Assembly: GCA_900547765.1 (NCBI GenBank)
Contig: URIA01000002.1
Span: forward strand, 2,620-66,619
DNA length: 64,000 nucleotides
Direction: 5' to 3'
From: an uncultured Collinsella sp.
GTDB taxonomy: Bacteria > Actinomycetota > Coriobacteriia > Coriobacteriales > Coriobacteriaceae
Part shown: positions 3,020 to 51,879 of the stretch, piece after piece
Layout: every line of letters begins with the position of its first letter
How positions within the stretch are numbered: position 1 is the stretch's first letter
The notes under the pieces: generated by a model
Databases searched by the model: none
Told to the model about the DNA's origin: nothing
Seen by the model: only the letters and a program-made list of their open reading frames with translations
Translations under genes and position numbers: made by a program

Positions 3020-3508
3020 ATGGAGCGCATCGCGAGTTTTTCCGTTGACCATCTGCTGCTTGAGCCCGGCGTGTATGTGAGCCGCATCGACCGCGATCCG
3101 GCGACCGGCGCCGCCGTCACCACTTTTGACCTGCGCCTGACCACGCCCAATAAGGAGCCGGTTATGAACACGGCCGAATGCCACACCATCGAGCACTCGG
3201 GCGCGACGTTCCTTCGCAATCATGCCGAGTGGTCGAGCCGCATTGTCTACTTTGGTCCCATGGGCTGCCGTACGGGCTTTTACCTCGTCGTGTTTGGCGA
3301 GGTGACGAGCGAGGAGATTCTGCCGCTCGTGCGTGAGCTGTTCGAGTTTGTCGCTGGCTTTGAGGGCGATATCCCCGGTGCCGCTCCCGAGGAGTGCGGT
3401 AACTACCTGGACCAGAACCTTCCCATGGCAAACTGGCTCGCGCGCCGCTACCTCGACCGCGACTTGGCCGATATCGACGAGAATCACCTGCACTATCAGC
3501 AGGCGTAA
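3020..3508 (+). CDS. luxS: S-ribosylhomocysteinase LuxS
   Basis: HTIEH metal-binding motif and PMGCRTGFY motif characteristic of LuxS; ~160 aa. RBS GAGAGGA before ATG. Confidence 0.9.
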   Translation: MERIASFSVDHLLLEPGVYVSRIDRDPATGAAVTTFDLRLTTPNKEPVMNTAECHTIEHSGATFLRNHAEWSSRIVYFGPMGCRTGFYLVVFGEVTSEEILPLVRELFEFVAGFEGDIPGAAPEECGNYLDQNLPMANWLARRYLDRDLADIDENHLHYQQA

Positions 3509-3536
3509 GGCTGCTTGCAGGAATAACGTTTGTGCC

Positions 3537-3572
3537 AGAAGCGCTCCCGCTCTTTGCGGAGCGCTTTTTTAT
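3537..3572 (+). terminator. Rho-independent terminator after luxS
   Basis: Hairpin AGCGCTCC(C)GC-tctttg-GCGGAGCGCT followed by TTTTTT. Confidence 0.6.
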
Positions 3573-3643
3573 GCCGAGTGCTCAAAACAGAACAAGATTG
3601 TTCTAGAATGTTCATACTGTCACACAAACGAACAGGAGCGAAC

Positions 3644-4288
3644 ATGCATATCTACTCTGTCTCTGATCCCGAGTTCAAGTCCTATGGCAACGTTTGGGAT
3701 AACGTTCCGTCCGAGCTTACGTCGCCCGTGCTCGAGGCACTTGCCTCCACGCCCATCCCCGAGGGCAGCAAGTATGTGGCCTCCGCGCCCGAGCTCGAGG
3801 GTGTCATGGATGCCGATAAGCTGGGCTTTCTCATGTTTGGCGGTCGTCCCTTCCAGCTGGGCTGGTGCAACGGCCACAACACGCGTCTCAACTGCCTGGA
3901 GTACCACCGCGCGAGCGAGTTCAACCTGGGCGCCCGCGACTTTATCCTGCTCGTGGCGCATCGCTGGGAGATCGAGGACGGCAAGCTCGATACCGCGTGC
4001 GTCAAGGCGTTCCGCGTGCCGGCCGGCACGCTTGTTGAGGTTTTCAACACCACGCTTCACTACACGCCCTGCATGGTCGACGACGGCGGCTTCCAGGTGA
4101 TGGTGGCGCTGCCCGCCGGCACCAACGGCCCGCGCCCCGAGGCTGCAGCCGACATGCCTGCCGCCGGTGACGGCTACTGCTACTGGAAGGCCGACAAGTG
4201 GGTTCTCTGTCATGCTGACAGCCCCAAGGCAGCCGAGGGCGGCTACGTAGGCCTCATCGGCAAAAACCTCGACATCACCGTGGACTAG
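3644..4288 (+). CDS. Hypothetical protein (possibly DUF4867-like)
   Basis: ATG 3644 preceded by AGGAG; the track start at 3530 would run through the luxS terminator. Globular, cysteine-containing 214-aa protein. The DUF4867 assignment is from memory only. Confidence 0.55.
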   Translation: MHIYSVSDPEFKSYGNVWDNVPSELTSPVLEALASTPIPEGSKYVASAPELEGVMDADKLGFLMFGGRPFQLGWCNGHNTRLNCLEYHRASEFNLGARDFILLVAHRWEIEDGKLDTACVKAFRVPAGTLVEVFNTTLHYTPCMVDDGGFQVMVALPAGTNGPRPEAAADMPAAGDGYCYWKADKWVLCHADSPKAAEGGYVGLIGKNLDITVD

Positions 4289-4296
4289 CGCATCGC

Positions 4297-4343
4297 CCCA
4301 AACCACCACAAAGGTGCCTGTCCCCTTTGCGGTGGTTTGGGGC
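4297..4343. repeat. REP-like hairpin repeat, copy a (inverted orientation, extended stem, one stem mismatch)
   Basis: ccccaaACCACCACAAAGGtgcctgtccccTTTGCGGTGGTTtgggg. The loop is the reverse complement of the GGGGACAGGCACC loop of copies b-d. Confidence 0.8.
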
Positions 4344-4541
4344 GGGCGGATATCGGGAAGTGCCAGACGGGGGAGGCTGCCGGGCGCCTTGCCGTCTGCG
4401 GATTTTGGGACATGTGGCCCGCTTTTTGAGCCTGCCTGTCGGTACACTAAAAGCACTATGGGTACCCGCGAGCGACATATCGGCCACGCGGCCGCCCGAT
4501 CCGCACCCGTGGCGGATCCCAGGGGCGGCAGGCTCTTCGCC

Positions 4542-6341
4542 ATGCCGCGATTCCTTGTTGGCATAACGCATCAGGTGTACCGTCACCGCGTCTTTGCTAT
4601 CGCCGGCGCCATCACCGCGCTGTTCCTCATGCTTTTGGCAGTCTTGCCGGCGCTGTTCGCCTTCGACCCCAAACTTTCTAACGCCGTGCCCGCCTATAGC
4701 GAGGTGTCCGAAGAGGTCGTGGATGCGCTCGTCCACTCGAGCTCTCCCCCGCTTCTTGTCGCCGCAATTATATTTTCGATCTGGGGCGTATCGGTCTATC
4801 TGCGCTGTTTGGACTATGTGTTGCGCCGCCGCCTTGTTGCCATCGCCACCATCTGCGCCCTGTGGATGATCGAAGTCATTCTCAAGTACAAGTCGTTCAC
4901 GCCGTTCTATGCCACCGTGCTGTGGTACCTGTACTACGTGCCCATGACGCTCATTCCGCTGCTCTACCAGTTGTGTGGTTTGCGCCTTGCGGGTCTGGAG
5001 CAACACCGCCTGGGTCGCCGCTACTGCGCTGCGCTGTGGATTGTGGCCATCCTGCTTATCGGATTTGTGCTCACCAACGATTTTCACCAGCAGGTCTTCC
5101 GCTTTGACCGTACAAGCGACACCTGGAGCAACGATTACACGTACGGCTGGGGTTATTTCGCCGTCTTAGTGTGGACGGCCTTTAACTTTGTGGCCTTTTT
5201 TATCCTGGTTGGTCGGTCCTCGTCCTTTCGCATCCAGCGTTTCTCGGGCACGGCGGCGCTCGTGCTGCTGGGCGGCGCGTTCTTTGCCATCTCATATGCG
5301 TTGCGCGTGCCCTGGGCATGGAGGCTCAACTTCTCGCTCATCTATTGCGTCTTGTGCGTGGTGGCGATGGAAATCTGTCTCGATTGCGGTGTCATTCCGT
5401 CATATCACGACATCGCCGGCATCTTCGACACCTTGCCGCTCGACCTCAAAGTTCTAACGCGCGACTTGCAGGAAGTCTATGCCACGCCGGTGTCGAAGCC
5501 AATGCCGGCGGGCGTGTGCGAAGAGCTGCGAGCCCAGGAACACGGGCATGCCCATGCCTTTGCCGTGGAGTCCAATCCCGATGTGATGTACCGAGCCTTT
5601 CCACTGCTGGGCGGATCGGCCCTGCTTGCCCAAGACGTGTCGGATCTCAACGAGCTTAACCGTGAACTGGCACACCGTCGCATGGAGCTGCAACGCCAAA
5701 ACGAGCTGCTCGCCGCCGACTACGACCTTAAGACGCATTTGGCAGATCAAGAGGCCGAGACCTTATTGGTCCAAGACGTGGACCAAGCGCTTGCCCGCGC
5801 GCTCGAAGGGATGTACGACCTGCTGAGCTCGCTGCCGCCATTGACCGACGAAGCGTCTTCGCACGAGCGCTACCGCATGCTGCAGCGCGCCAAGATGCTC
5901 GTCGCCTATTGCAAGCGCAAGGGGTCGCTCACGTTGGCACAGCACGGGGAGAGCGGTTTTGATCGCGACCGCATTCAGCTCATCGCCAACGAGCTCGCAA
6001 GCGACCTGCGCACCATCGATATCGATTGCGCCTCGATTATCGCCATACGGCGCCCGTTGCACGCCAGTACGGTAAGCGCCCTGTACGACTGCGTGTATGA
6101 CTTTGCGTTTTTTGCCTACACCACCGACCATCCGGCGCTTATGTATCACTTGGGCGACCATGACCGATGCAGTGTCGAGCTGCGCGCCACGCTTTTTTCC
6201 AACGATGATGCAGATCTTTCGCAGACGCCCGCTGCGCAAGAGCTCGAAAGCGCTCTGCAAGGGCGCAACGTGGCATACCGCCTTGAGGGCGAGTCCGGCC
6301 AGCTGCGCATGATCGTCTTGATGCCGAGGGCGGGTGAGTGA
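4542..6341 (+). CDS. Polytopic membrane protein with a degenerate histidine-kinase-like cytoplasmic domain (putative accessory sensor)
   Basis: Multiple hydrophobic helices in the N-terminal half; C-terminal coiled region without a recognizable HisKA_3 H-box or ATPase N/G boxes. Stop overlaps the next gene (ATGA). Start uncertain: ATG 4458 or 4542, neither with a good RBS. Confidence 0.5.
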   Translation: MPRFLVGITHQVYRHRVFAIAGAITALFLMLLAVLPALFAFDPKLSNAVPAYSEVSEEVVDALVHSSSPPLLVAAIIFSIWGVSVYLRCLDYVLRRRLVAIATICALWMIEVILKYKSFTPFYATVLWYLYYVPMTLIPLLYQLCGLRLAGLEQHRLGRRYCAALWIVAILLIGFVLTNDFHQQVFRFDRTSDTWSNDYTYGWGYFAVLVWTAFNFVAFFILVGRSSSFRIQRFSGTAALVLLGGAFFAISYALRVPWAWRLNFSLIYCVLCVVAMEICLDCGVIPSYHDIAGIFDTLPLDLKVLTRDLQEVYATPVSKPMPAGVCEELRAQEHGHAHAFAVESNPDVMYRAFPLLGGSALLAQDVSDLNELNRELAHRRMELQRQNELLAADYDLKTHLADQEAETLLVQDVDQALARALEGMYDLLSSLPPLTDEASSHERYRMLQRAKMLVAYCKRKGSLTLAQHGESGFDRDRIQLIANELASDLRTIDIDCASIIAIRRPLHASTVSALYDCVYDFAFFAYTTDHPALMYHLGDHDRCSVELRATLFSNDDADLSQTPAAQELESALQGRNVAYRLEGESGQLRMIVLMPRAGE

Positions 6342-10778: not shown

Positions 10779-12101
10779 TTAGTCGTCCTTGTCGTCTTTC
10801 ATGACAACGGTGGTCTCGGTGTGGCTGAAGGTGTCGTGCTTCTCGACCAGGTCGAGCTCGCCGCAGTACTCGTCGGCGTGGGTGGCCTCGTTGGCCGTTT
10901 TGAGCTGGCCTACCAGCAGCACGTCTCCGATGATTACGATGATCAGCGGCGCGACGATGTTGATGAGGATGCCCTCGATATCAAAGGTGAGGTAATCCGG
11001 ATCGAAGGCGTATTCGCCCATAAAGAGAATCTGGGAGAGGACAAATCCGATCACAAAGAACAGCAGCGAGGCGATAATGAGCTTGGGCTTGGAGCAGGGG
11101 AGCTCGCCGACCATACGGCCGGTTTGGCCGTTCATGGCAAACAGGTAGCTCTTGCCGTTCCACGAGGTCGAGAGCATCCAGACGGGGAACAAGGCGTAGT
11201 CGCTGTCTTCCCAGGTGTAGTCGAGCTGCTTGCTCTCGACCGAGGCATCGTCGTACTCATCGATAACGGTCTCGCGCAGGGCCGAGATCGTGCTTTCTTC
11301 CATACGGCGCTCGGCACGGGCCTTGCAAGTTTCGCAGTCCTCATCGTAACGGTTGGCGATGTAGCCGGGCATGTAGGCGACCGAGAACGGGCGCAGCGCG
11401 TCGTAGTCAAACGGTTCGATGGCGTCCATGTGGCCGTCGGGCATCTTGGACGATCCGTCGACGGGCACGCGCTCAAACGAGATATTGCCCTTACGGTAGG
11501 CATCGTAGTGGTCGGTGGTCGTGACGGTGCGGTCGGATTCCTCGGTCACGGTCTCGTTGGTTGCGTCAAAGTGCACTTCGCCGTCCACGCGGGCGCCGTA
11601 GAGCCAAAACGGCACGTAGACGCCTTGGACTTCGTCGATGTGGTTGCCGGTGACAAAGCTCTTGGGCAGCAGGATCTTGCCCTTGTAGTGCTCCTTGAGC
11701 GCGGCCAAGACATCGTCGCGTCCGAGTTTAAACGGAATCACCAGGTCGGGCGAGAAGTCGCCAGAGAGCTGGCCGGGCGCCACGGCGGAGTTGCCGCAGT
11801 ACGGGCAGGTGGAGACGGCGACGGTGCCGTCCGAGATCAGCTCGGCGCCACACGACGAGCAGATATAGCCGGCGTTTTGGGCCAGTTCCTGCACCGCATC
11901 GTCGGATGCGGGCTTGGATGTTGCGGCCGCCGCATCGGCTTTGGCATCTGCCTTGTCCTGGCGCTCGCGATAGAGAGCCTCGACCTCTTCGACTTCAAAG
12001 CGCGAGTCGCAGTAGTCACAGACGAGCTTTTGCTCGGCGCTGGCAAAATGCAGCGGGCCGCCACACGCGGGGCACTGATAGTTAACGCTTTCGAAGGCCA
12101 T
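10779..12101 (-). CDS. Zinc-ribbon membrane protein (YdjG/YdjH-like partner of the SPFH protein)
   Basis: N-terminal CPACGG…CDYC and CSSCG…CPYCG ribbons; C-terminal two TM helices. RBS GGAAAGGA. Directly upstream of the SPFH gene. Confidence 0.65.
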   Translation of the reverse strand: MAFESVNYQCPACGGPLHFASAEQKLVCDYCDSRFEVEEVEALYRERQDKADAKADAAAATSKPASDDAVQELAQNAGYICSSCGAELISDGTVAVSTCPYCGNSAVAPGQLSGDFSPDLVIPFKLGRDDVLAALKEHYKGKILLPKSFVTGNHIDEVQGVYVPFWLYGARVDGEVHFDATNETVTEESDRTVTTTDHYDAYRKGNISFERVPVDGSSKMPDGHMDAIEPFDYDALRPFSVAYMPGYIANRYDEDCETCKARAERRMEESTISALRETVIDEYDDASVESKQLDYTWEDSDYALFPVWMLSTSWNGKSYLFAMNGQTGRMVGELPCSKPKLIIASLLFFVIGFVLSQILFMGEYAFDPDYLTFDIEGILINIVAPLIIVIIGDVLLVGQLKTANEATHADEYCGELDLVEKHDTFSHTETTVVMKDDKDD

Positions 12102-22498: not shown

Positions 22499-22743
22499 GT
22501 AGTTACGCGGGTTTACCAACCCGCGTAACGGCTCGACGCTGCGCGGGCCGCATTTGGACAATCTGACGTTCAACTTCAAGGGCGCGACCAGAAGGTCAGC
22601 GCCCTTTCGTTTCACGTCACCTTGCCTCAAATGCGACCCGCTCGCTGACTTATGCTCAACCTATGGCGTCATCTCGCCCCAAAAGGGCCTCCTTCGCTCT
22701 GGCGGGTTTTCGCTGTCGGTACCAAAGCATCGGCGTTGTCGAA

Positions 22744-22774
22744 GTAGTCATTGGGGACGTTCTTAAATGACTAC
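22744..22774. repeat. Hairpin repeat with conserved loop GGGGACGTTCTTA, copy C (9-bp stem)
   Basis: GTAGTCATT-ggggacgttctta-AATGACTAC. Third family member, 9.7 kb from copies A and B. Confidence 0.8.
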
Positions 22775-24531: not shown

Positions 24532-25971
24532 ATGCTTGACTACAATTTGGAAAAACGCGGCGAAGCATCGCTTTATGAGTATGTTTACCAGCAAATTCGA
24601 GATGATATTGTTGCTGGACGTATTGTGGCGGGGGAGCATCTTCCGTCTAAGCGCGCCTTTGCCAGTCATCTGGGAATCAGTGTCATTACCATCGAGAATG
24701 CATATAGCCAGTTACTTGCCGAGGGCTATATTTGCTCAATGCCGCGTCGTGGCTACTACGCTTGCAAGCTTCCGGATGCACCGGTTTTGCCTTTGGCTTC
24801 GCAGGGCATCGACCGAGATACCGTCTCTGTGGGCCTCAGCGCGCATGATGTCAACGGACAGGTCGAGCTGTTCGATGCACTTTCTCCTTCCGCTTTGGAG
24901 GCGGCGCGGCTTTGGCAAAGCGCACTACGGGCGACGCTGGCATCCGAAGATGAGCGCGAAATCTTTTCGCCCGCACCGGCGCAGGGCACCGCTCGGCTGC
25001 GACGCGCAATTGCTCACCATCTGCGTGGGACAAGGGGCATGAATGTCGACCCCAACAACATTGTTATCGGTGCAGGCGCCCAGCTGCTCGATACCATGTT
25101 GGTTCAGTTGCTTGGAGCCGACAAGGTGTATGCCGTTGAGGACCCGGGCTATTTGCGTCTGACGCGTATCTATCAGGCTATGGGCTGCCAAGTACGACAT
25201 ATCCCGTTGGATGATGAGGGCGTGGACTTGAGCACTCTGCAGAAAAGCGGGACCGATGTCCTTCACTTGATGCCGTCTCATCAGTATCCGACCGGCCTTG
25301 TGACGAGTATTGCGCGTCGCTATGCGCTACTGAGCTGGGCCGCCGAGCGACCAGGTCGGTATCTCATCGAAGATGACTTTGATTGTGAGTTTCGCCTTGC
25401 CGGCAAGCCGATTCCCGCGCTCGCGTCGATCGATGCCGCCCAGTCGGTTATCTACACCAACACGTTTTCGAAGAGCCTTTCATCGGCGTTGCGTTTGGCG
25501 TATATGGTGTTGCCCGATGAGCTAATGGAGCGGTTTAGGCGCAACCTTGGTTTCTACGCCTCGTCGGTGAGCTCTGTTGACCAGGTCGCTTTGGCGCGTT
25601 TGCTGGAATCGGGTGATTACGAGCGACATGTGAACCGCGTGCGCGTTCGTGCTCGCGAGGCGCGTGATGGCCTGACGTCGCTTGTGCGGAAAGCGTTTCC
25701 GGCAGGGGAGGTCTCGATCGAACATGCAGACGCGGGCCTTTACTGCACCGTGGTTGCGGAGCGCGGAGCGGGCGGAAGCTCTTTTGTGCGGGCCCTCACG
25801 CGCTCGAGTATCCCTTTTGTCGATATCAGTGACTGTTATTGGTGTGCCGATGGCGCATTTGTCCCTGAAAACTCAAGTCAAATTCTTGTTCAGTATGACG
25901 ATTTGAGTTCAAAAGCGCTAAATACCTTGGAATCGCAGCTAATGGGAGCACTCTGCAACCTAAGTGAGTAG
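24532..25971 (+). CDS. pdxR: MocR/GntR-family PLP-dependent transcriptional regulator (PdxR-like)
   Basis: N-terminal GntR HTH (LPSKRAFASHLGISVITIENAYSQL) plus aminotransferase-like domain. Divergent from pdxST. The last codons (…NLSE, TAG) are contributed by MITE copy 1. Confidence 0.8.
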   Translation: MLDYNLEKRGEASLYEYVYQQIRDDIVAGRIVAGEHLPSKRAFASHLGISVITIENAYSQLLAEGYICSMPRRGYYACKLPDAPVLPLASQGIDRDTVSVGLSAHDVNGQVELFDALSPSALEAARLWQSALRATLASEDEREIFSPAPAQGTARLRRAIAHHLRGTRGMNVDPNNIVIGAGAQLLDTMLVQLLGADKVYAVEDPGYLRLTRIYQAMGCQVRHIPLDDEGVDLSTLQKSGTDVLHLMPSHQYPTGLVTSIARRYALLSWAAERPGRYLIEDDFDCEFRLAGKPIPALASIDAAQSVIYTNTFSKSLSSALRLAYMVLPDELMERFRRNLGFYASSVSSVDQVALARLLESGDYERHVNRVRVRAREARDGLTSLVRKAFPAGEVSIEHADAGLYCTVVAERGAGGSSFVRALTRSSIPFVDISDCYWCADGAFVPENSSQILVQYDDLSSKALNTLESQLMGALCNLSE

Positions 25972-26081
25972 GCTTTTGGAACTTTGGCGACCAGGCAGTT
26001 TTGTAACAAGCTATCTACCTGCGGTTTTGAAAAGCAGGATGACCGGGCTGCTCGGGATGTTCAAAAAAGTCTACTCACTTG
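25960..26081. mobile_element. MITE-like element, copy 1 (~122 bp, 20-bp terminal inverted repeats CTAAGTGAGTAG(A/G)CTTTT…)
   Basis: Left end CTAAGTGAGTAGGCTTTTGG, right end CAAAAAAGTCTACTCACTTG; internal sequence homologous to copies 2 and 3. Confidence 0.8.
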
Positions 26082-26262
26082 TCGCGCAAAGCTTCTGCAT
26101 GAGAAAAAATGGGGTTTTCAACAGAACTTCGTCCAGCTCTCGGCAAGCTTTTGGCCAGTTGGGGAGGGCTGTTGAAAACTTGGCAGTCCGTTCGGCACCA
26201 TTTTTGGCGCGTTCGCGCCAATGCGTGACTGACTGGGTTGAAATTCGTGTTTTCCTGTGCCT

Positions 26263-27390
26263 ATGAAAGATCTACTTTGTGACATATCGGCTTTTAGGTA
26301 CTGGCGTTTGCCCCCTCAGGTCCGCGCTCTGTGTCCGCCGCTTCCACGACCGGAAGAAGGCCGGCAGCGATATGATCTCGCCCGCAACCCGACGGCTGCG
26401 GTCGCGCTCGGTTTTCCGTTGTATACATTGGTTCAGACAAGAAACAAACGGACTTGTCCTGCCAGCATTAGGCAGCGGCTGTTTCTTGGTGAGCTTCCCA
26501 GGGAATCCGTACTGGAAACGGAGCATGGGTTTTTGATTACGTCTCCTCTTCTGACGGTATTCATCATGTCGCGGCATCTGACGGATCTTCAGCTTCTTTT
26601 GGTATTGGCGGAGATGTGTGGCTTGTTTGCGGTGTGCGCTCTGCCTGCGGCACTTGGGGCGGAGCTTTCGCGTGCAATTGATTCGGGCGCGATCTCGACA
26701 ACGTTCGGTTGGGTGCGCTGCCCGTCCGAGGACGGCACCGCCTCAAATTTATGGCGTCGAGACGCTTTGGTTTTGGGCGGAGACCTTGACCGTTTTTGTT
26801 CAGATGTTTGCGGGATACGTTACGGCAATAGATTTAGGACGGTGTCGCAACTTGTTCCATTGGGTGCCGCGTCGCCTTTTGAGGTCGAGGCGTATTTGCT
26901 ACTTGCACTGCCGCGATCCCTGGGAGGCGTAGGCTTTTGCGACATAGAGCTTAATGTTGAAGTGATGCTAAGCACAAGTGCTCGAGCGATTGTGGGAAAG
27001 TCCCGTGTATATATCGACATACTTCTGTCTTCGCCGGACGGCAGGCGACAGGTGGCCATTGAATGTCAGGGAAAGGCCTCGCACGGACGCGCAGGGGATG
27101 GCTTGCGTGACGCTGACCGCATGACGGCCCTTCAGGCCATGGGCTACGATGTGCTTCTCCTGACACACAGACAGATATCGGATGAGGATAGATTCCGCGC
27201 GATCGTTAAGGCCGTATGCAGGATGCTCGATGCTGAATATCGTGATAAAAGCTCAGATGAGCAAAGGGCTGAGACATTACTCAGGTCTGAACTATTCGTT
27301 GACTGGACAAAATTGGGAGTAATCGACGGAAAGATGCCCGTTAGACACAAAATGGCTCGATCGTGGACGGCTGCGAATCTAAGTGAGTAG
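26263..27390 (+). CDS. Hypothetical protein with C-terminal restriction-endonuclease-fold (DUF559/Vsr-like) domain
   Basis: C-terminal …VAIECQGKASHGRAGDGLRDADRMTALQAMGYDVLLLTHRQI… resembles DUF559-type endonuclease domains. Noticeably lower GC than neighbors; bracketed by MITE copies 1 and 2; stop codon lies in the MITE terminal repeat. Confidence 0.5.
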   Translation: MKDLLCDISAFRYWRLPPQVRALCPPLPRPEEGRQRYDLARNPTAAVALGFPLYTLVQTRNKRTCPASIRQRLFLGELPRESVLETEHGFLITSPLLTVFIMSRHLTDLQLLLVLAEMCGLFAVCALPAALGAELSRAIDSGAISTTFGWVRCPSEDGTASNLWRRDALVLGGDLDRFCSDVCGIRYGNRFRTVSQLVPLGAASPFEVEAYLLLALPRSLGGVGFCDIELNVEVMLSTSARAIVGKSRVYIDILLSSPDGRRQVAIECQGKASHGRAGDGLRDADRMTALQAMGYDVLLLTHRQISDEDRFRAIVKAVCRMLDAEYRDKSSDEQRAETLLRSELFVDWTKLGVIDGKMPVRHKMARSWTAANLSE

Positions 27391-27501
27391 ACTTTTGGCA
27401 CTTTGGCGACTAGGTCGTTTTGCAACAAGGCATTTACCTGCGGCTTTATAAAGTGATATGGATGGTCTGCTCGGCAAGTTCCAAAAAGTCTACTCACTTA
27501 G
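27379..27501. mobile_element. MITE-like element, copy 2
   Basis: CTAAGTGAGTAGACTTTTGG … CCAAAAAGTCTACTCACTTAG; near-perfect 20-bp terminal inverted repeats. Confidence 0.85.
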
Positions 27502-27554: not shown

Positions 27555-27600
27555 TTTGTGAGGCACGAAAAAGGCCCGAACCATGCGGTCCGGGCCTCAT
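27555..27600 (-). terminator. Rho-independent terminator after the rubrerythrin gene
   Basis: Minus-strand hairpin GGCCCGGACCGCATGGTTCGGGCC followed by TTTTTCG. Confidence 0.6.
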
Positions 27601-28192: not shown

Positions 28193-28448
28193 GATTCGAT
28201 CCTTTCGATCGATGGCGATTGTGCGCTCGTCCGGTCCCGTAAGGGCCCTCTCCGGACGTGCGTCTTGACGAGTTCTATTATCCATAAATGCAACCAAATG
28301 TGAAGCCTATTAGGAATGATTTTTAATAAAACAATTTTGAGATATGAAGATGTTGATTGATTAACGATTGGGAGGCCGTCTGCGATCTTTGCTGAGTACA
28401 ATCGGGCGAGCAAATGTTGACCTATCAACAAATGAAGGAGTTTCCTTT

Positions 28449-31058: not shown

Positions 31059-31180
31059 AATCAGATGGCGTAGCGACAAACGGTCGAAAGGCGCAGGCAG
31101 GATGAATTTGTGTCCGCACGAGTTCGTAGACTTCTCAATAAGGTTAAGCGCCGGTTTATCTGGCCGTTAGGGGAGTTGCT

Positions 31181-37092: not shown

Positions 37093-37215
37093 CTAAGTGA
37101 GTAGACTTTTTGCAATATCGCGAGCACATGGCTTTTGCGCAAGGGCTCTACCTGCGGTTTTAGTATTGGTTATGCGGGTTGTGCTTGGCTATTGCAAAAA
37201 AGTCTACTCACTTAG
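37093..37215. mobile_element. MITE-like element, copy 3
   Basis: CTAAGTGAGTAGACTTTTTGC … GCAAAAAAGTCTACTCACTTAG. Located between the helicase and trmB genes. Confidence 0.85.
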
Positions 37216-37280: not shown

Positions 37281-38120
37281 CTAGGACTCTTGCGGTAGAC
37301 GCTTCTTGCCCTTGCGGGCACGGTTTCTAAAGTTCTCAACGGCCTCTTCCATGCCCAGGGGTACATAGGCGAGCTCATCGAGGTTTTCGGGCAGGTAGCA
37401 GGCAAGACTTTGCTCCTGCGCACGGCCCGCCGCGAGCTGTTCATCGCTGGGCCGTGCGCCGGGTGTGGCGCAAATGCCATAGACGACGGCACCCATCTCG
37501 CGCGTGCGGCATTCATATTCGGTCTCGGGATGCTCGGGATGGTCGCGGCGCACGTCGTCACTTACCCAAAGCGTGTCGTAGCCGGCTGCGGCAAACTGTC
37601 CTAGGGCGTAGTCGCGCAGTGGCTTGCTGTCGGTGCGCAGCGTGACGGTGGCGCCGGCTGCAAAGAGCGGGCGGTAGAGCATCAGATGGTCGACATGGAC
37701 GAGTCGTTTTTTGGCGTACTTGGCCTTGGGCTGCGGCGTGGGAAAGTTGATGGTGATGGCATCGAGCTCGCCTGCGGCAAACAGCTGCGGCAGCGATGCG
37801 GCACCTCGGGGCAGGACGAGTGCGTTGGACAGCTCTTGCTCGCAGATTTTCTGCGCGGCATAGGCGATGCAGATGGGTTCCTGGTCCATGCCGATAAAGA
37901 GGGCGTTTGGATCGTGGGCCGCGCGCTCAACAAGGTACGTTCCCTTGCCGCAGCCAAGATCCAGGTGAAGGTACTCGAAGGGCTTGCTGCCTGCGGGCGC
38001 GCAAGCCTCGCGCCAATCTCCGGTATAGATCTCGGGGTTCGTCTCGATTGCATCGGCGTAGCGCTCCAAGCGCTCCTCGAGCACAAAGTTCTTAGGCGTG
38101 CGAACGTGGACGGCTCCCAT
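37281..38120 (-). CDS. trmB: tRNA (guanine46-N7)-methyltransferase
   Basis: LDLGCGKG SAM motif and INFPTPQPK…KRL motif typical of TrmB. RBS AAGGAG. Confidence 0.85.
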   Translation of the reverse strand: MGAVHVRTPKNFVLEERLERYADAIETNPEIYTGDWREACAPAGSKPFEYLHLDLGCGKGTYLVERAAHDPNALFIGMDQEPICIAYAAQKICEQELSNALVLPRGAASLPQLFAAGELDAITINFPTPQPKAKYAKKRLVHVDHLMLYRPLFAAGATVTLRTDSKPLRDYALGQFAAAGYDTLWVSDDVRRDHPEHPETEYECRTREMGAVVYGICATPGARPSDEQLAAGRAQEQSLACYLPENLDELAYVPLGMEEAVENFRNRARKGKKRLPQES

Positions 38121-51174: not shown

Positions 51175-51879
51175 TCACTCCATTTCGAGAAGCGCCGGGT
51201 CGGCAAGAATGCGTTGCCTGCTTTGCGCGTGGGCATCGATTTCAATAGGGCCTGCCTCTATCCCTCGTGTAAGGCTGAGTGATCCGGCTGGCTTCTCGAA
51301 ATGAGCGTCTGTGTCTTTGGTGCTGACGGCGTAGAACAGCAGGGACGCTTCTCCCGCCGCGATGGCATCGGTGTCGGCTTTGGTCAACCGCAACGATGCC
51401 GTGAATGAGAGGGTGGGCTGCGTGTCGTCTGCATTCGCGGCGGCGCAGCCCAGACATATACCGCCTCCTTTCTCGAAAAACGCACCGTCGAAGGCGACCT
51501 TCGCTCCGTTCGCCGAGTCATCGATCGAAGCGATGTCGATGTGCAGCTCTAAATTGCATGGATCGCCATCTGCGTCGAGCACAACCGAGCGCCACGTGCA
51601 GACGGCGTACCCCGCCTGGGAGCCGTTTGCCTTGTTCGAACGATTGATATCCACGACTATCGAACCGTCCGTATTACGACGAAGGCATCCCGAGGTTGAG
51701 ATTGCAGCCTGTGCGATCGAAAAACGCTTGCACGCAATGGCGCTCGACGGATTTGATGCGGAGCTTAGGGCTGCTGGTAAGGAGTCTGCCATGACGGGAG
51801 TCGCCCAAGCGGCGACAGGCGTTCCGGTTGCGAGCGCGCCGCAGAGTGCGACGACGGGCAAAAGGTTCTTCGATGCCAT
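51175..51879 (-). CDS. Secreted hypothetical protein (N-terminal part of an interrupted larger gene?)
   Basis: Signal peptide MASKNLLPVVALCGALATGTPVAAWA; RBS AAGGAG; ends at a TGA that is in-frame with the downstream ORF. Confidence 0.55.
   Translation of the reverse strand: MASKNLLPVVALCGALATGTPVAAWATPVMADSLPAALSSASNPSSAIACKRFSIAQAAISTSGCLRRNTDGSIVVDINRSNKANGSQAGYAVCTWRSVVLDADGDPCNLELHIDIASIDDSANGAKVAFDGAFFEKGGGICLGCAAANADDTQPTLSFTASLRLTKADTDAIAAGEASLLFYAVSTKDTDAHFEKPAGSLSLTRGIEAGPIEIDAHAQSRQRILADPALLEME

Follow-up and report, generated by a model that had tools for sequence, protein, structure and literature searches.

Palindromic repeats flanking a nuclease-fold gene of Collinsella and its relatives: a candidate nuclease and palindrome partnership

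The DNA considered here, called the window below, is a stretch of 64,000 nucleotides from an uncultured Collinsella sp. (assembly GCA_900547765.1, contig URIA01000002.1, positions 2,620 to 66,619 of the forward strand). It carries pdxR, which encodes a MocR-type regulator, followed by ORF375, which encodes a protein with a nuclease fold, and each of these two genes ends inside a short palindromic element bounded by terminal inverted repeats (TIRs); a third copy of the element stands alone farther downstream (Table 1). A sequence-only reading of the window, made without database searches, had taken the elements for nonautonomous miniature inverted-repeat transposable elements (MITEs), with copies 1 and 2 in an arrangement like that of a composite transposon, which suggested that the gene between them had been mobilised. 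In this study, we compare these elements, their host sites and the ORF375 protein family with the corresponding loci of other Collinsella genomes.

Table 1. Positions, in the window, of the genes and palindromic elements discussed in the text
Feature	Position	Strand	Remarks
pdxR (MocR-type regulator, 479 aa)	24532-25971	+	stop TAG at 25969-25971, inside the TIR of copy 1
Palindromic element, copy 1 (family A, site S4)	25960-26081	+	TIRs 25960-25979 and 26062-26081; core CTACCTGCGGTTTT at 26015-26028; right TIR ends in CTTG
5' region of ORF375	26082-26262	+	CAAGCTTTTGGCCAG at 26144-26158
ORF375	26263-27390	+	stop inside the left TIR of copy 2
Palindromic element, copy 2 (family A, site S1)	27379-27501	+	TIRs 27379-27398 and 27482-27501; core TTACCTGCGGCTTT at 27434-27447; same orientation as copy 1
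Palindromic element, copy 3 (family A, site S5), solitary	37093-37215	+	core at 37148-37161

The three elements, designated family A, are 122-123 bp long and AT-rich (GC 0.44-0.47), and their alignment gives a mean column identity of 80%. A profile search of the window with nhmmer returns exactly these three copies, and the 16-mer AAGTGAGTAGACTTTT, with at most one mismatch, occurs six times, once at each element end, where 0.19 occurrences are expected by chance. The TIRs measure 18-20 bp and have the consensus CTAAGTGAGTAG(A/G)CTTTT; inside these lineage-specific TIRs lie partly conserved inner arms (CGAGCAC / GTGCTCG), an asymmetric centre and a deeply conserved loop motif, (T/G)ACCTGCGGTT, and all three copies have the core CTACCTGCGG(T/C)TTT. 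The elements leave no room for an open reading frame (ORF). The sequence-only reading was thus right about the three elements, their TIRs, their common core and their lack of a transposase; its version of the TIR ends holds in general and fails at the right end of copy 1, which is CTCACTTG and not CTCACTTAG (...CTTAG), here and in all orthologues.

Folded as RNA, copies 1, 2 and 3 reach -43.3, -45.5 and -57.5 kcal/mol (z -3.3, -5.7 and -8.3, respectively), and the plus strand always folds better than the minus strand, which suggests a contribution of G-U pairs. The RNAalifold consensus consists mostly of an invariant terminal stem, with compensatory change at two pairs, a pattern that does not separate RNA-level from DNA-level selection. 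No Rfam family reaches its gathering threshold anywhere in the window, and within the elements there is no match even at E<=5; scans for promoters and terminators find no consensus in or beside them. Just downstream of the rubrerythrin gene, a GC-rich hairpin with a T-run (27558-27600, minus strand) has weak Rfam matches to terminator-containing families; if this is the intrinsic terminator of that gene, the organism uses ordinary terminators next to the element.

Copies 1 and 2 are direct repeats that have about 8 nt of upstream flank in common. No direct repeat surrounds the unit of copy 1, ORF375 and copy 2, whose outer flanks (..tgcaac and ..tttttgac) differ. Copy 3 is antisense to the two minus-strand genes that it separates, with the trmB stop at 37281 and the start of a DUF3516 helicase gene at about 36971. 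Two further candidates were discarded as probable chance matches: a weak core-like match at 11605-11650, inside coding sequence, and a 123-bp inverted repeat at 51181-51303, overlapped by minus-strand ORFs, none of which is demonstrated to be a gene. Integron attC sites are imperfect palindromes that follow promoterless ORFs, have RYYYAAC...GTTRRRY core sites and are accompanied by an integrase. This assignment was rejected for family A, whose ends (CTAAGTGAG...CTCACTTAG) contain no GTTRRRY core and whose neighbourhood contains no integrase.

Both pdxR and ORF375 end with ...CTA AGT GAG TAG (L-S-E-stop) in a left TIR, as the sequence-only reading had noted. The loss of a native PdxR C-terminus, which it deduced from this, finds no support: the protein has 479 aa compared with 478-479 aa in the solved PdxR and GabR, and it matches the NCBIfam PdxR equivalog with 458.8 bits from position 1 to 443 of the 448-position profile. 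PdxR is full length, and only its last three codons and stop are derived from the element. All sampled PdxR orthologues end either with NLSE or at a frameshifted TIR stop, because all of them carry the element; their endings therefore say nothing on whether NLSE is native. The endings are ...NLSE* (TAG), ...LQPK* (TGA) and ...HSAT* (TAA), with TAG used by 13 orthologues, TGA by eight and TAA by one, and small upstream frameshifts account for the choice; ORF375 orthologues end with ...LSE* or ...TARI*.

These alternative endings are possible because the terminus TAAgTGAgTAG holds stop codons for all three frames, and the symmetry of the element places the same motif on the opposite strand at the other end, so that any ORF entering the element is closed at once. 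The two strands of the window contain seven true triple-frame stop motifs, five of which are element ends. One of the two others, TGATTGATTAA at 28354-28364, lies a few bases 5' of the first possible start (TTG, 28368) of an Fe-alcohol dehydrogenase ORF. The termini are also constrained. Their outer 17-18 nt are nearly invariant across 39 representative sequences, and among 19 orthologous genomes nucleotide diversity is 0 in the outermost 11-12 nt or so at all four ends and 0.044-0.067 in the four TIRs, compared with 0.115 in the element interiors, 0.085-0.14 in flanking intergenic DNA and 0.13-0.16 at codon position 3. Even though this comparison has some ascertainment bias toward exact termini, the contrast between terminus and interior across sites is too strong for decaying relics.

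ORF375 has a GC content of 0.541 (GC3 0.545) in a window of 0.602, which places it in the lowest 2% of equal-sized windows. The low GC noted earlier is therefore real; pdxR is nearly as low (0.558). The C-terminus of the protein is a Vsr/DUF559-type PD-(D/E)XK endonuclease domain, in agreement with the sequence-only reading: the fold is confidently that of a nuclease, with structural matches to Vsr, DUF559 and EDxHD nucleases. Residues D252, E267, H274 and D283 are invariant in the family, and Q269 and R286 are kept in at least 90% of members. In other words, the protein combines a restriction-endonuclease-like fold with conserved acidic/histidine residues of catalytic type. Its N-terminal region of about 240 residues has no identified relative. 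The family comprises 1,934 clusters at 50% identity (E<=1e-3), with a typical member of about 350 aa, and named homologues of ORF375 are all from Collinsella. Pfam assigns REase_MTES_1575 to 29 of 60 relatives and DUF559 to nine, and no other Pfam type appears; PADLOC, PHROGs, NCBIfam and a PDB sequence search give nothing informative. TnsA of Tn7 and the EDxHD homing endonuclease I-Bth0305I are structural neighbours, at fold level and 14-18% identity; unlike them, ORF375 has neither TnsB/TnsC-like partners nor an intron or intein context.

A search for TAAGTGAGTAGACTTTT in one genome per species returned at least 119 stretches, essentially all from Collinsella or Coriobacteriaceae. Among the matches listed there are at least 137 complete family-A elements (121 bp in 126 and 122 bp in 11, TAAG..CTTA), which fall by their flanks into about nine orthologous sites. 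Repeats of this kind thus extend beyond the present locus, as the sequence-only reading required. Besides the sites after ORF375 (S1), after pdxR (S4) and in the trmB-helicase spacer (S5), there is one in the spacer between a HAD hydrolase gene and YitT (S3), a direct pair around a metallophosphoesterase gene and an NhaP/TrkA_C antiporter gene (S6 and S2), and three rare sites (S7-S9). All copies are intergenic, often right at gene 3' ends, with sense orientation relative to transcription at S1, S2, S4 and S6 and antisense at S3 and S5. Sequence subfamilies follow the sites: interiors from unrelated sites are 45-67% identical, and the closer pairs are S1/S4 (80%), S2/S6 (95%) and S3/S7 (90%).

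The loci are 87-97% identical to the window at the nucleotide level, so that this sampling represents the C. aerofaciens species complex. In every genome seen, the order pdxR-element-ORF375-element-rubrerythrin is kept, and loci reached independently through the protein all have both copies 1 and 2. ORF375 itself is a single-copy gene in conserved order throughout the complex, and its rate of divergence is close to that of pdxR. Taken together, family-A copies appear to be fixed now at about nine orthologous sites within this complex. The local pairs S4/S1 and S6/S2 are direct repeats of the same subfamily whose common flank continues beyond the element (about 8 nt in the former; 66 nt, in 187-bp units, in the latter), and such a shared flank points to a probable origin by local duplication or recombination rather than by two transposition events. 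We saw no target-site duplication, that is, no direct repeat beyond a possible TA, which is inseparable from the palindromic TIR end (C-TA-AGTG...CACT-TA-G). Within the at least 119 stretches among the matches listed, no TIR pair at a spacing typical of an insertion sequence (IS) was found, and the cognate transposase with the same TIRs that the sequence-only reading had envisaged did not turn up. Longer spacings are confined to the two copies around ORF375 (about 1.52 kb) and to copies split by an unrelated IS110 element, and solitary TIR ends are contig ends or IS110 junctions. Plasmids gave no match to the element, and viral contigs gave two single-TIR matches, by our own estimate about what chance would give for a 17-mer in such a collection. 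A literature search found nothing on a Collinsella MITE, on this TIR sequence or on DUF559 proteins with palindromes.

It should be mentioned that the surroundings of S2 contain other features. Downstream of the element in one locus (L014 3318-5060) lies a GIY-YIG and Schlafen-like helicase gene that looks defence-related, and the DNA beyond S2 differs between genomes. Inverted repeats of 124-129 bp with unrelated termini (e.g., ACCGACTTCTTTATA...) occur at L014 2121-2244, which equals L076 5091-5214, at L014 7680-7808 and at L033 7766-7890, one of them about 180 bp upstream of the family-A copy at S2. They may represent additional palindrome families.

Palindromes of similar build are also found beside distant relatives of ORF375. 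We examined the sequences surrounding nine diverse members of the family, which have 21-44% identity to the reference. Eight of the nine, representing seven out of eight distinct loci, have palindromes of 120-136 bp nearby, some 30-340 bp upstream of the start, at the stop or shortly after it, or in both places. They stand on both sides of the gene at four loci, with terminal repeats CGAAGTGAGCCT (L245), ACGAWATTGGGA (L248, where the downstream copy overlaps the stop), CAAATGCGCGGATAA (L251) and AAGTAGGTATCC (L252), and upstream at the others, with TTCGGAAGTATGCGGCAAA (L246-L250), AATCGGGCGATTTTGTAACGAG (L254) and CAATTAGGTAACCTAAT (L253). The termini are alike on the two sides of one gene and unrelated between loci, while the central motif ACCTGCGG(T/A)T and inner GAGTAGA/TCTACTC arms recur in many of these palindromes. 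The background is low: 950 kb of Collinsella DNA contains 14 inverted repeats of 115-140 bp with at least 13 matched bases, family A excluded, which predicts about 0.1 for the flanks searched, whereas 11 were seen. These numbers show that genes of this nuclease-fold family are strongly associated in position with palindromes of this build, in a lineage-specific way.

Two further cases connect the protein with the termini. A family member lies downstream of pyruvate kinase genes that share 86% identity; its own identity is only 38%, and the palindrome termini are unrelated. A second paralogue, 33% identical to ORF375 and with CAAGCTTTTGGCCAG in its 5' region as well, is followed by a family-C element in some contigs and by a family-B element in others, its alleles being 70% identical. 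Because family members have palindromes of the same build with termini of their own, the protein and the termini seem to diverge together; because homologues of ORF375 elsewhere are accompanied by their own, different palindromes, ORF375 looks like a cognate partner rather than cargo. Families B (CAAAACTATGCCGGTTTAC...), C (CCACGAAACCGGCCCATCTACTACGTTT) and D (GGAAGTATGCGGCAAA), 125-165 bp long, have the inner arms and core of family A and were seen in metagenome loci (L126, L144, L174, L179, L185, L194, L204, L212, L239 and others). None of the three occurs in the window or in the 950 kb of Collinsella DNA selected for family A, and no other palindrome family was found within the window. Family A appears to belong to a larger group, a superfamily of palindromic repeats, 120-165 bp long, that occurs in Collinsella and in related Coriobacteriia.

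The conserved loop is also the target of another element. In some genomes, a palindrome is split exactly there (...ACCTGC^GGTTTT...), and contigs tend to break at this point. Scanning metagenomes with an internal 24-mer of the insert gave 120 loci. The insert, seen for example in L170 (about 3303-4862), L072, L051 and L057, is 1,560 bp long in 18 of 27 complete copies. It codes for a 412-aa protein in which DEDD_Tnp_IS110 (E 1.9e-18) and Transposase_20 (E 1.4e-17) domains are joined by a C-terminal helix-turn-helix. All but one of 117 left junctions follow CCTGC, always in the same orientation relative to the palindrome; about 16 of the 117 are in family-A elements, and most others are in families B, C and D, which share the inner arms and core. 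The window itself lacks the IS110 element, which in some strains interrupts the orthologues of copy 3 after window position 37155 (L003, L103, L104 and L115). Its target halves are CTACCTGC/GGTTTT; the 300-nt 5' non-coding region of the IS includes TGACCTGC, which matches the left target half exactly.

IS110 elements are targeted by a bridge or seek RNA (PMC11208160, PMC11187229), and members of the IS110/IS1111 family are known to target REP and other palindromic repeats (Tobes & Pareja 2006, PMC1525189; ISPpu9, bioRxiv 10.1101/2025.01.17.633520). The occurrence of TGACCTGC in the IS seems to fit both RNA-guided targeting and this REP-type preference, and as in the known cases one position and one orientation within a repeated palindrome are used. 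Such targeting is, however, a property of a second element that exploits the palindromes, and it leaves their own nature unexplained. In several contigs (L137, L177, L133 and others), the palindrome halves on the two sides of the IS110 element are not from the same palindrome; in one example, the left half belongs to the pdxR site and the right half to a family-A site not seen elsewhere. Such joins reflect rearrangement by the IS or else chimeric assembly. The 5' non-coding region of one copy (L170 3381-3424) has a weak Rfam match (E 0.17) to a C/D-box sRNA model, probably by chance; a preprint reports an evolutionary link between IS110 transposases, with their bridge RNAs, and the Nop5-family proteins of C/D-box snoRNAs (bioRxiv, PMC11213020). 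A different IS110-family transposase gene (L121 882-2003) lies upstream of pdxT/pdxS in one Collinsella isolate, and its close relative L120 has other genes there.

Elsewhere in the window, comparison with related genomes gave three observations on strain-variable DNA. At 31060-31068, immediately behind the aldehyde dehydrogenase gene, the window lacks some 300 bp that are present in many related Collinsella genomes (e.g., L007 3751-4062); this extra DNA has no similarity to the palindromes. Alignments to many related genomes stop at 22766, upstream of which the DNA is strain-variable. At 22500-22650, some 100-150 bp match the otherwise unrelated loci L035, L061, L073 and L087 at 78-87%, a distribution that suggests another small repeat.

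We consider it somewhat better than even (a probability of roughly 0.55) that ORF375 and the palindromes form a co-evolving module of nuclease and repeat, similar to the REPIN/RAYT system with a different enzyme, in which ORF375 would be the cognate partner of the palindromes and not their cargo. In this module, the ORF375 protein would recognise its cognate palindromes, possibly in hairpin or cruciform form, and nick or cut them; the cutting would seed solitary copies at other intergenic sites and keep the termini invariant. Several observations weigh against such a module. It is solely from adjacency and co-variation that we infer that the protein most likely acts on the palindromes, and part of the association is biased, because the loci of the second paralogue were ascertained through the IS that targets the elements. 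No adjacent palindrome was found at two family members (the L027 paralogue and L255). Gene conversion among copies could also explain the invariant termini. With about nine sites, the copy number is low compared with typical REPIN populations, and neither empty sites nor insertion polymorphism was seen in the loci, which were selected for carrying the element. Finally, the loci all come from gut metagenomes or metagenome-assembled genomes (MAGs), so that the taxonomic range and the picture per genome are incomplete.

Three other explanations compete with this one. That the elements are classical MITEs, deletion derivatives of an IS moved in trans (for example, by an IS630/Tc1-like element using the TA in CTAG), with copies 1 and 2 as a composite transposon that imported a low-GC gene, was in essence the view of the sequence-only reading, and it is the least likely of the three. 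The elements are indeed small, non-coding and AT-rich, with perfect TIRs whose ends (C-TA-AGTG...CACT-TA-G) would be compatible with TA duplication in CTAG, and each genome has several dispersed copies, if few; the low GC of ORF375 would also agree with import. However, a cognate IS is missing where about 12 IS-spaced TIR pairs would be expected in the at least 119 stretches listed if each genome had one full-length IS (for about nine element sites), all copies are at orthologous sites with site-specific sequence types, and the pair around ORF375 shows neither the flanking direct repeat nor the variable location of a composite transposon, its synteny being invariant in all relatives. Above all, the supposed cargo has homologues with different palindromes elsewhere, which independent captures would not give. 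The palindrome-gene-palindrome unit might instead be a new autonomous transposon, mobilised by an ORF375-type endonuclease (TnsA-like or homing-endonuclease-like) and with the solitary palindromes as its non-autonomous derivatives. Though it is the best placed of the three, this we regard as unlikely, since the two copies are direct and not inverted in the window and in all relatives, the gene is single-copy, syntenic and about as divergent as pdxR, and no single allele was seen in a second genomic context or with a target duplication.

A purely structural or regulatory role, in which the elements would be transcript-end hairpins (terminators or mRNA stabilisers with stops) or operators for regulators of the ORF375 family, with no present mobility, is a little less likely again. 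Much would agree with it: the hairpins are very stable and fold better on the plus strand, inner-arm differences between subfamilies are partly compensatory, the copies are intergenic and often at gene 3' ends, the termini are constrained at fixed sites, and stop codons at the base of the stem would keep ribosomes off the hairpin. On the contrary, terminator and promoter signals are missing in and beside the elements, next to which the rubrerythrin gene has a candidate terminator of its own; the orientation relative to transcription is inconsistent; the compensatory pairs are only two and Rfam has no match; and regulation alone leaves a nuclease-fold partner with an invariant motif of catalytic type unexplained. 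The module of nuclease and palindromes can be extended, speculatively and with less confidence than we place in the module itself. In the extended form, the proteins of the ORF375 family, with their endonuclease domain and a novel N-terminal domain, would represent another class, of independent evolutionary origin, of enzymes that reside in the host as single-copy genes and keep and spread their own hairpin repeats, after the model of RAYTs; the variable part of the protein would read the termini, and the loop ACCTGCGGTT would be the site of reaction, parasitised by the RNA-guided IS110 element.

REPINs are doublets of REP sequences associated with REP-associated tyrosine transposases, or RAYTs (Bertels & Rainey, PMC3116915; bioRxiv 10.1101/2021.07.10.451892). 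The present system resembles them in having a gene that is single-copy, syntenic and apparently inherited vertically, with hairpin-forming repeats of its own on its flanks, further intergenic copies of the repeat, a repeat sequence particular to each gene lineage and persistence at orthologous sites. It differs in its partner, which has a PD-(D/E)XK fold of Vsr/DUF559 type and not that of an IS200/IS605-like Y1 HUH transposase, in its about nine sites instead of tens to hundreds per genome, and in the long perfect TIRs and conserved loop motif of family A. The relation is best seen as a probable analogy of mechanism and not as membership.

Other short repeats are closer in form. The ERIC/IRU elements of enterobacteria and the Correia elements of Neisseria are MITE-like imperfect palindromes of about 100-160 bp. 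Family A shares with them a length of about 125 bp, TIRs, a possible TA at the ends and a hairpin formed by the whole element, as well as an intergenic, often transcribed and mostly fixed position at orthologous sites. We know of no dedicated flanked partner gene for ERIC or Correia, and to our knowledge neither a terminus with stops in all three frames nor a conserved central motif has been described as a feature of theirs.

Collinsella is among the commonest Actinobacteria of the human gut, and the repeats explain recurrent contig breaks, chimeric joins in MAGs and the odd C-termini (PdxR ending in ...LSE, ...LQPK or ...HSAT) in its genomes. A hairpin with stops in all frames at both ends is in effect a natural gene-end cassette, and the conserved loop motif provides a defined natural target for an IS110-family element of the bridge-RNA type in a gut commensal. 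The palindromes also offer a candidate substrate for a large uncharacterised family of nuclease-like proteins that lacks annotation in NCBIfam, in PADLOC and in the literature. Should the association be functional, this family would add a second enzyme class to the long-lived, vertically inherited partnerships of bacterial repeats and enzymes, a list that so far consists essentially of REPIN/RAYT.

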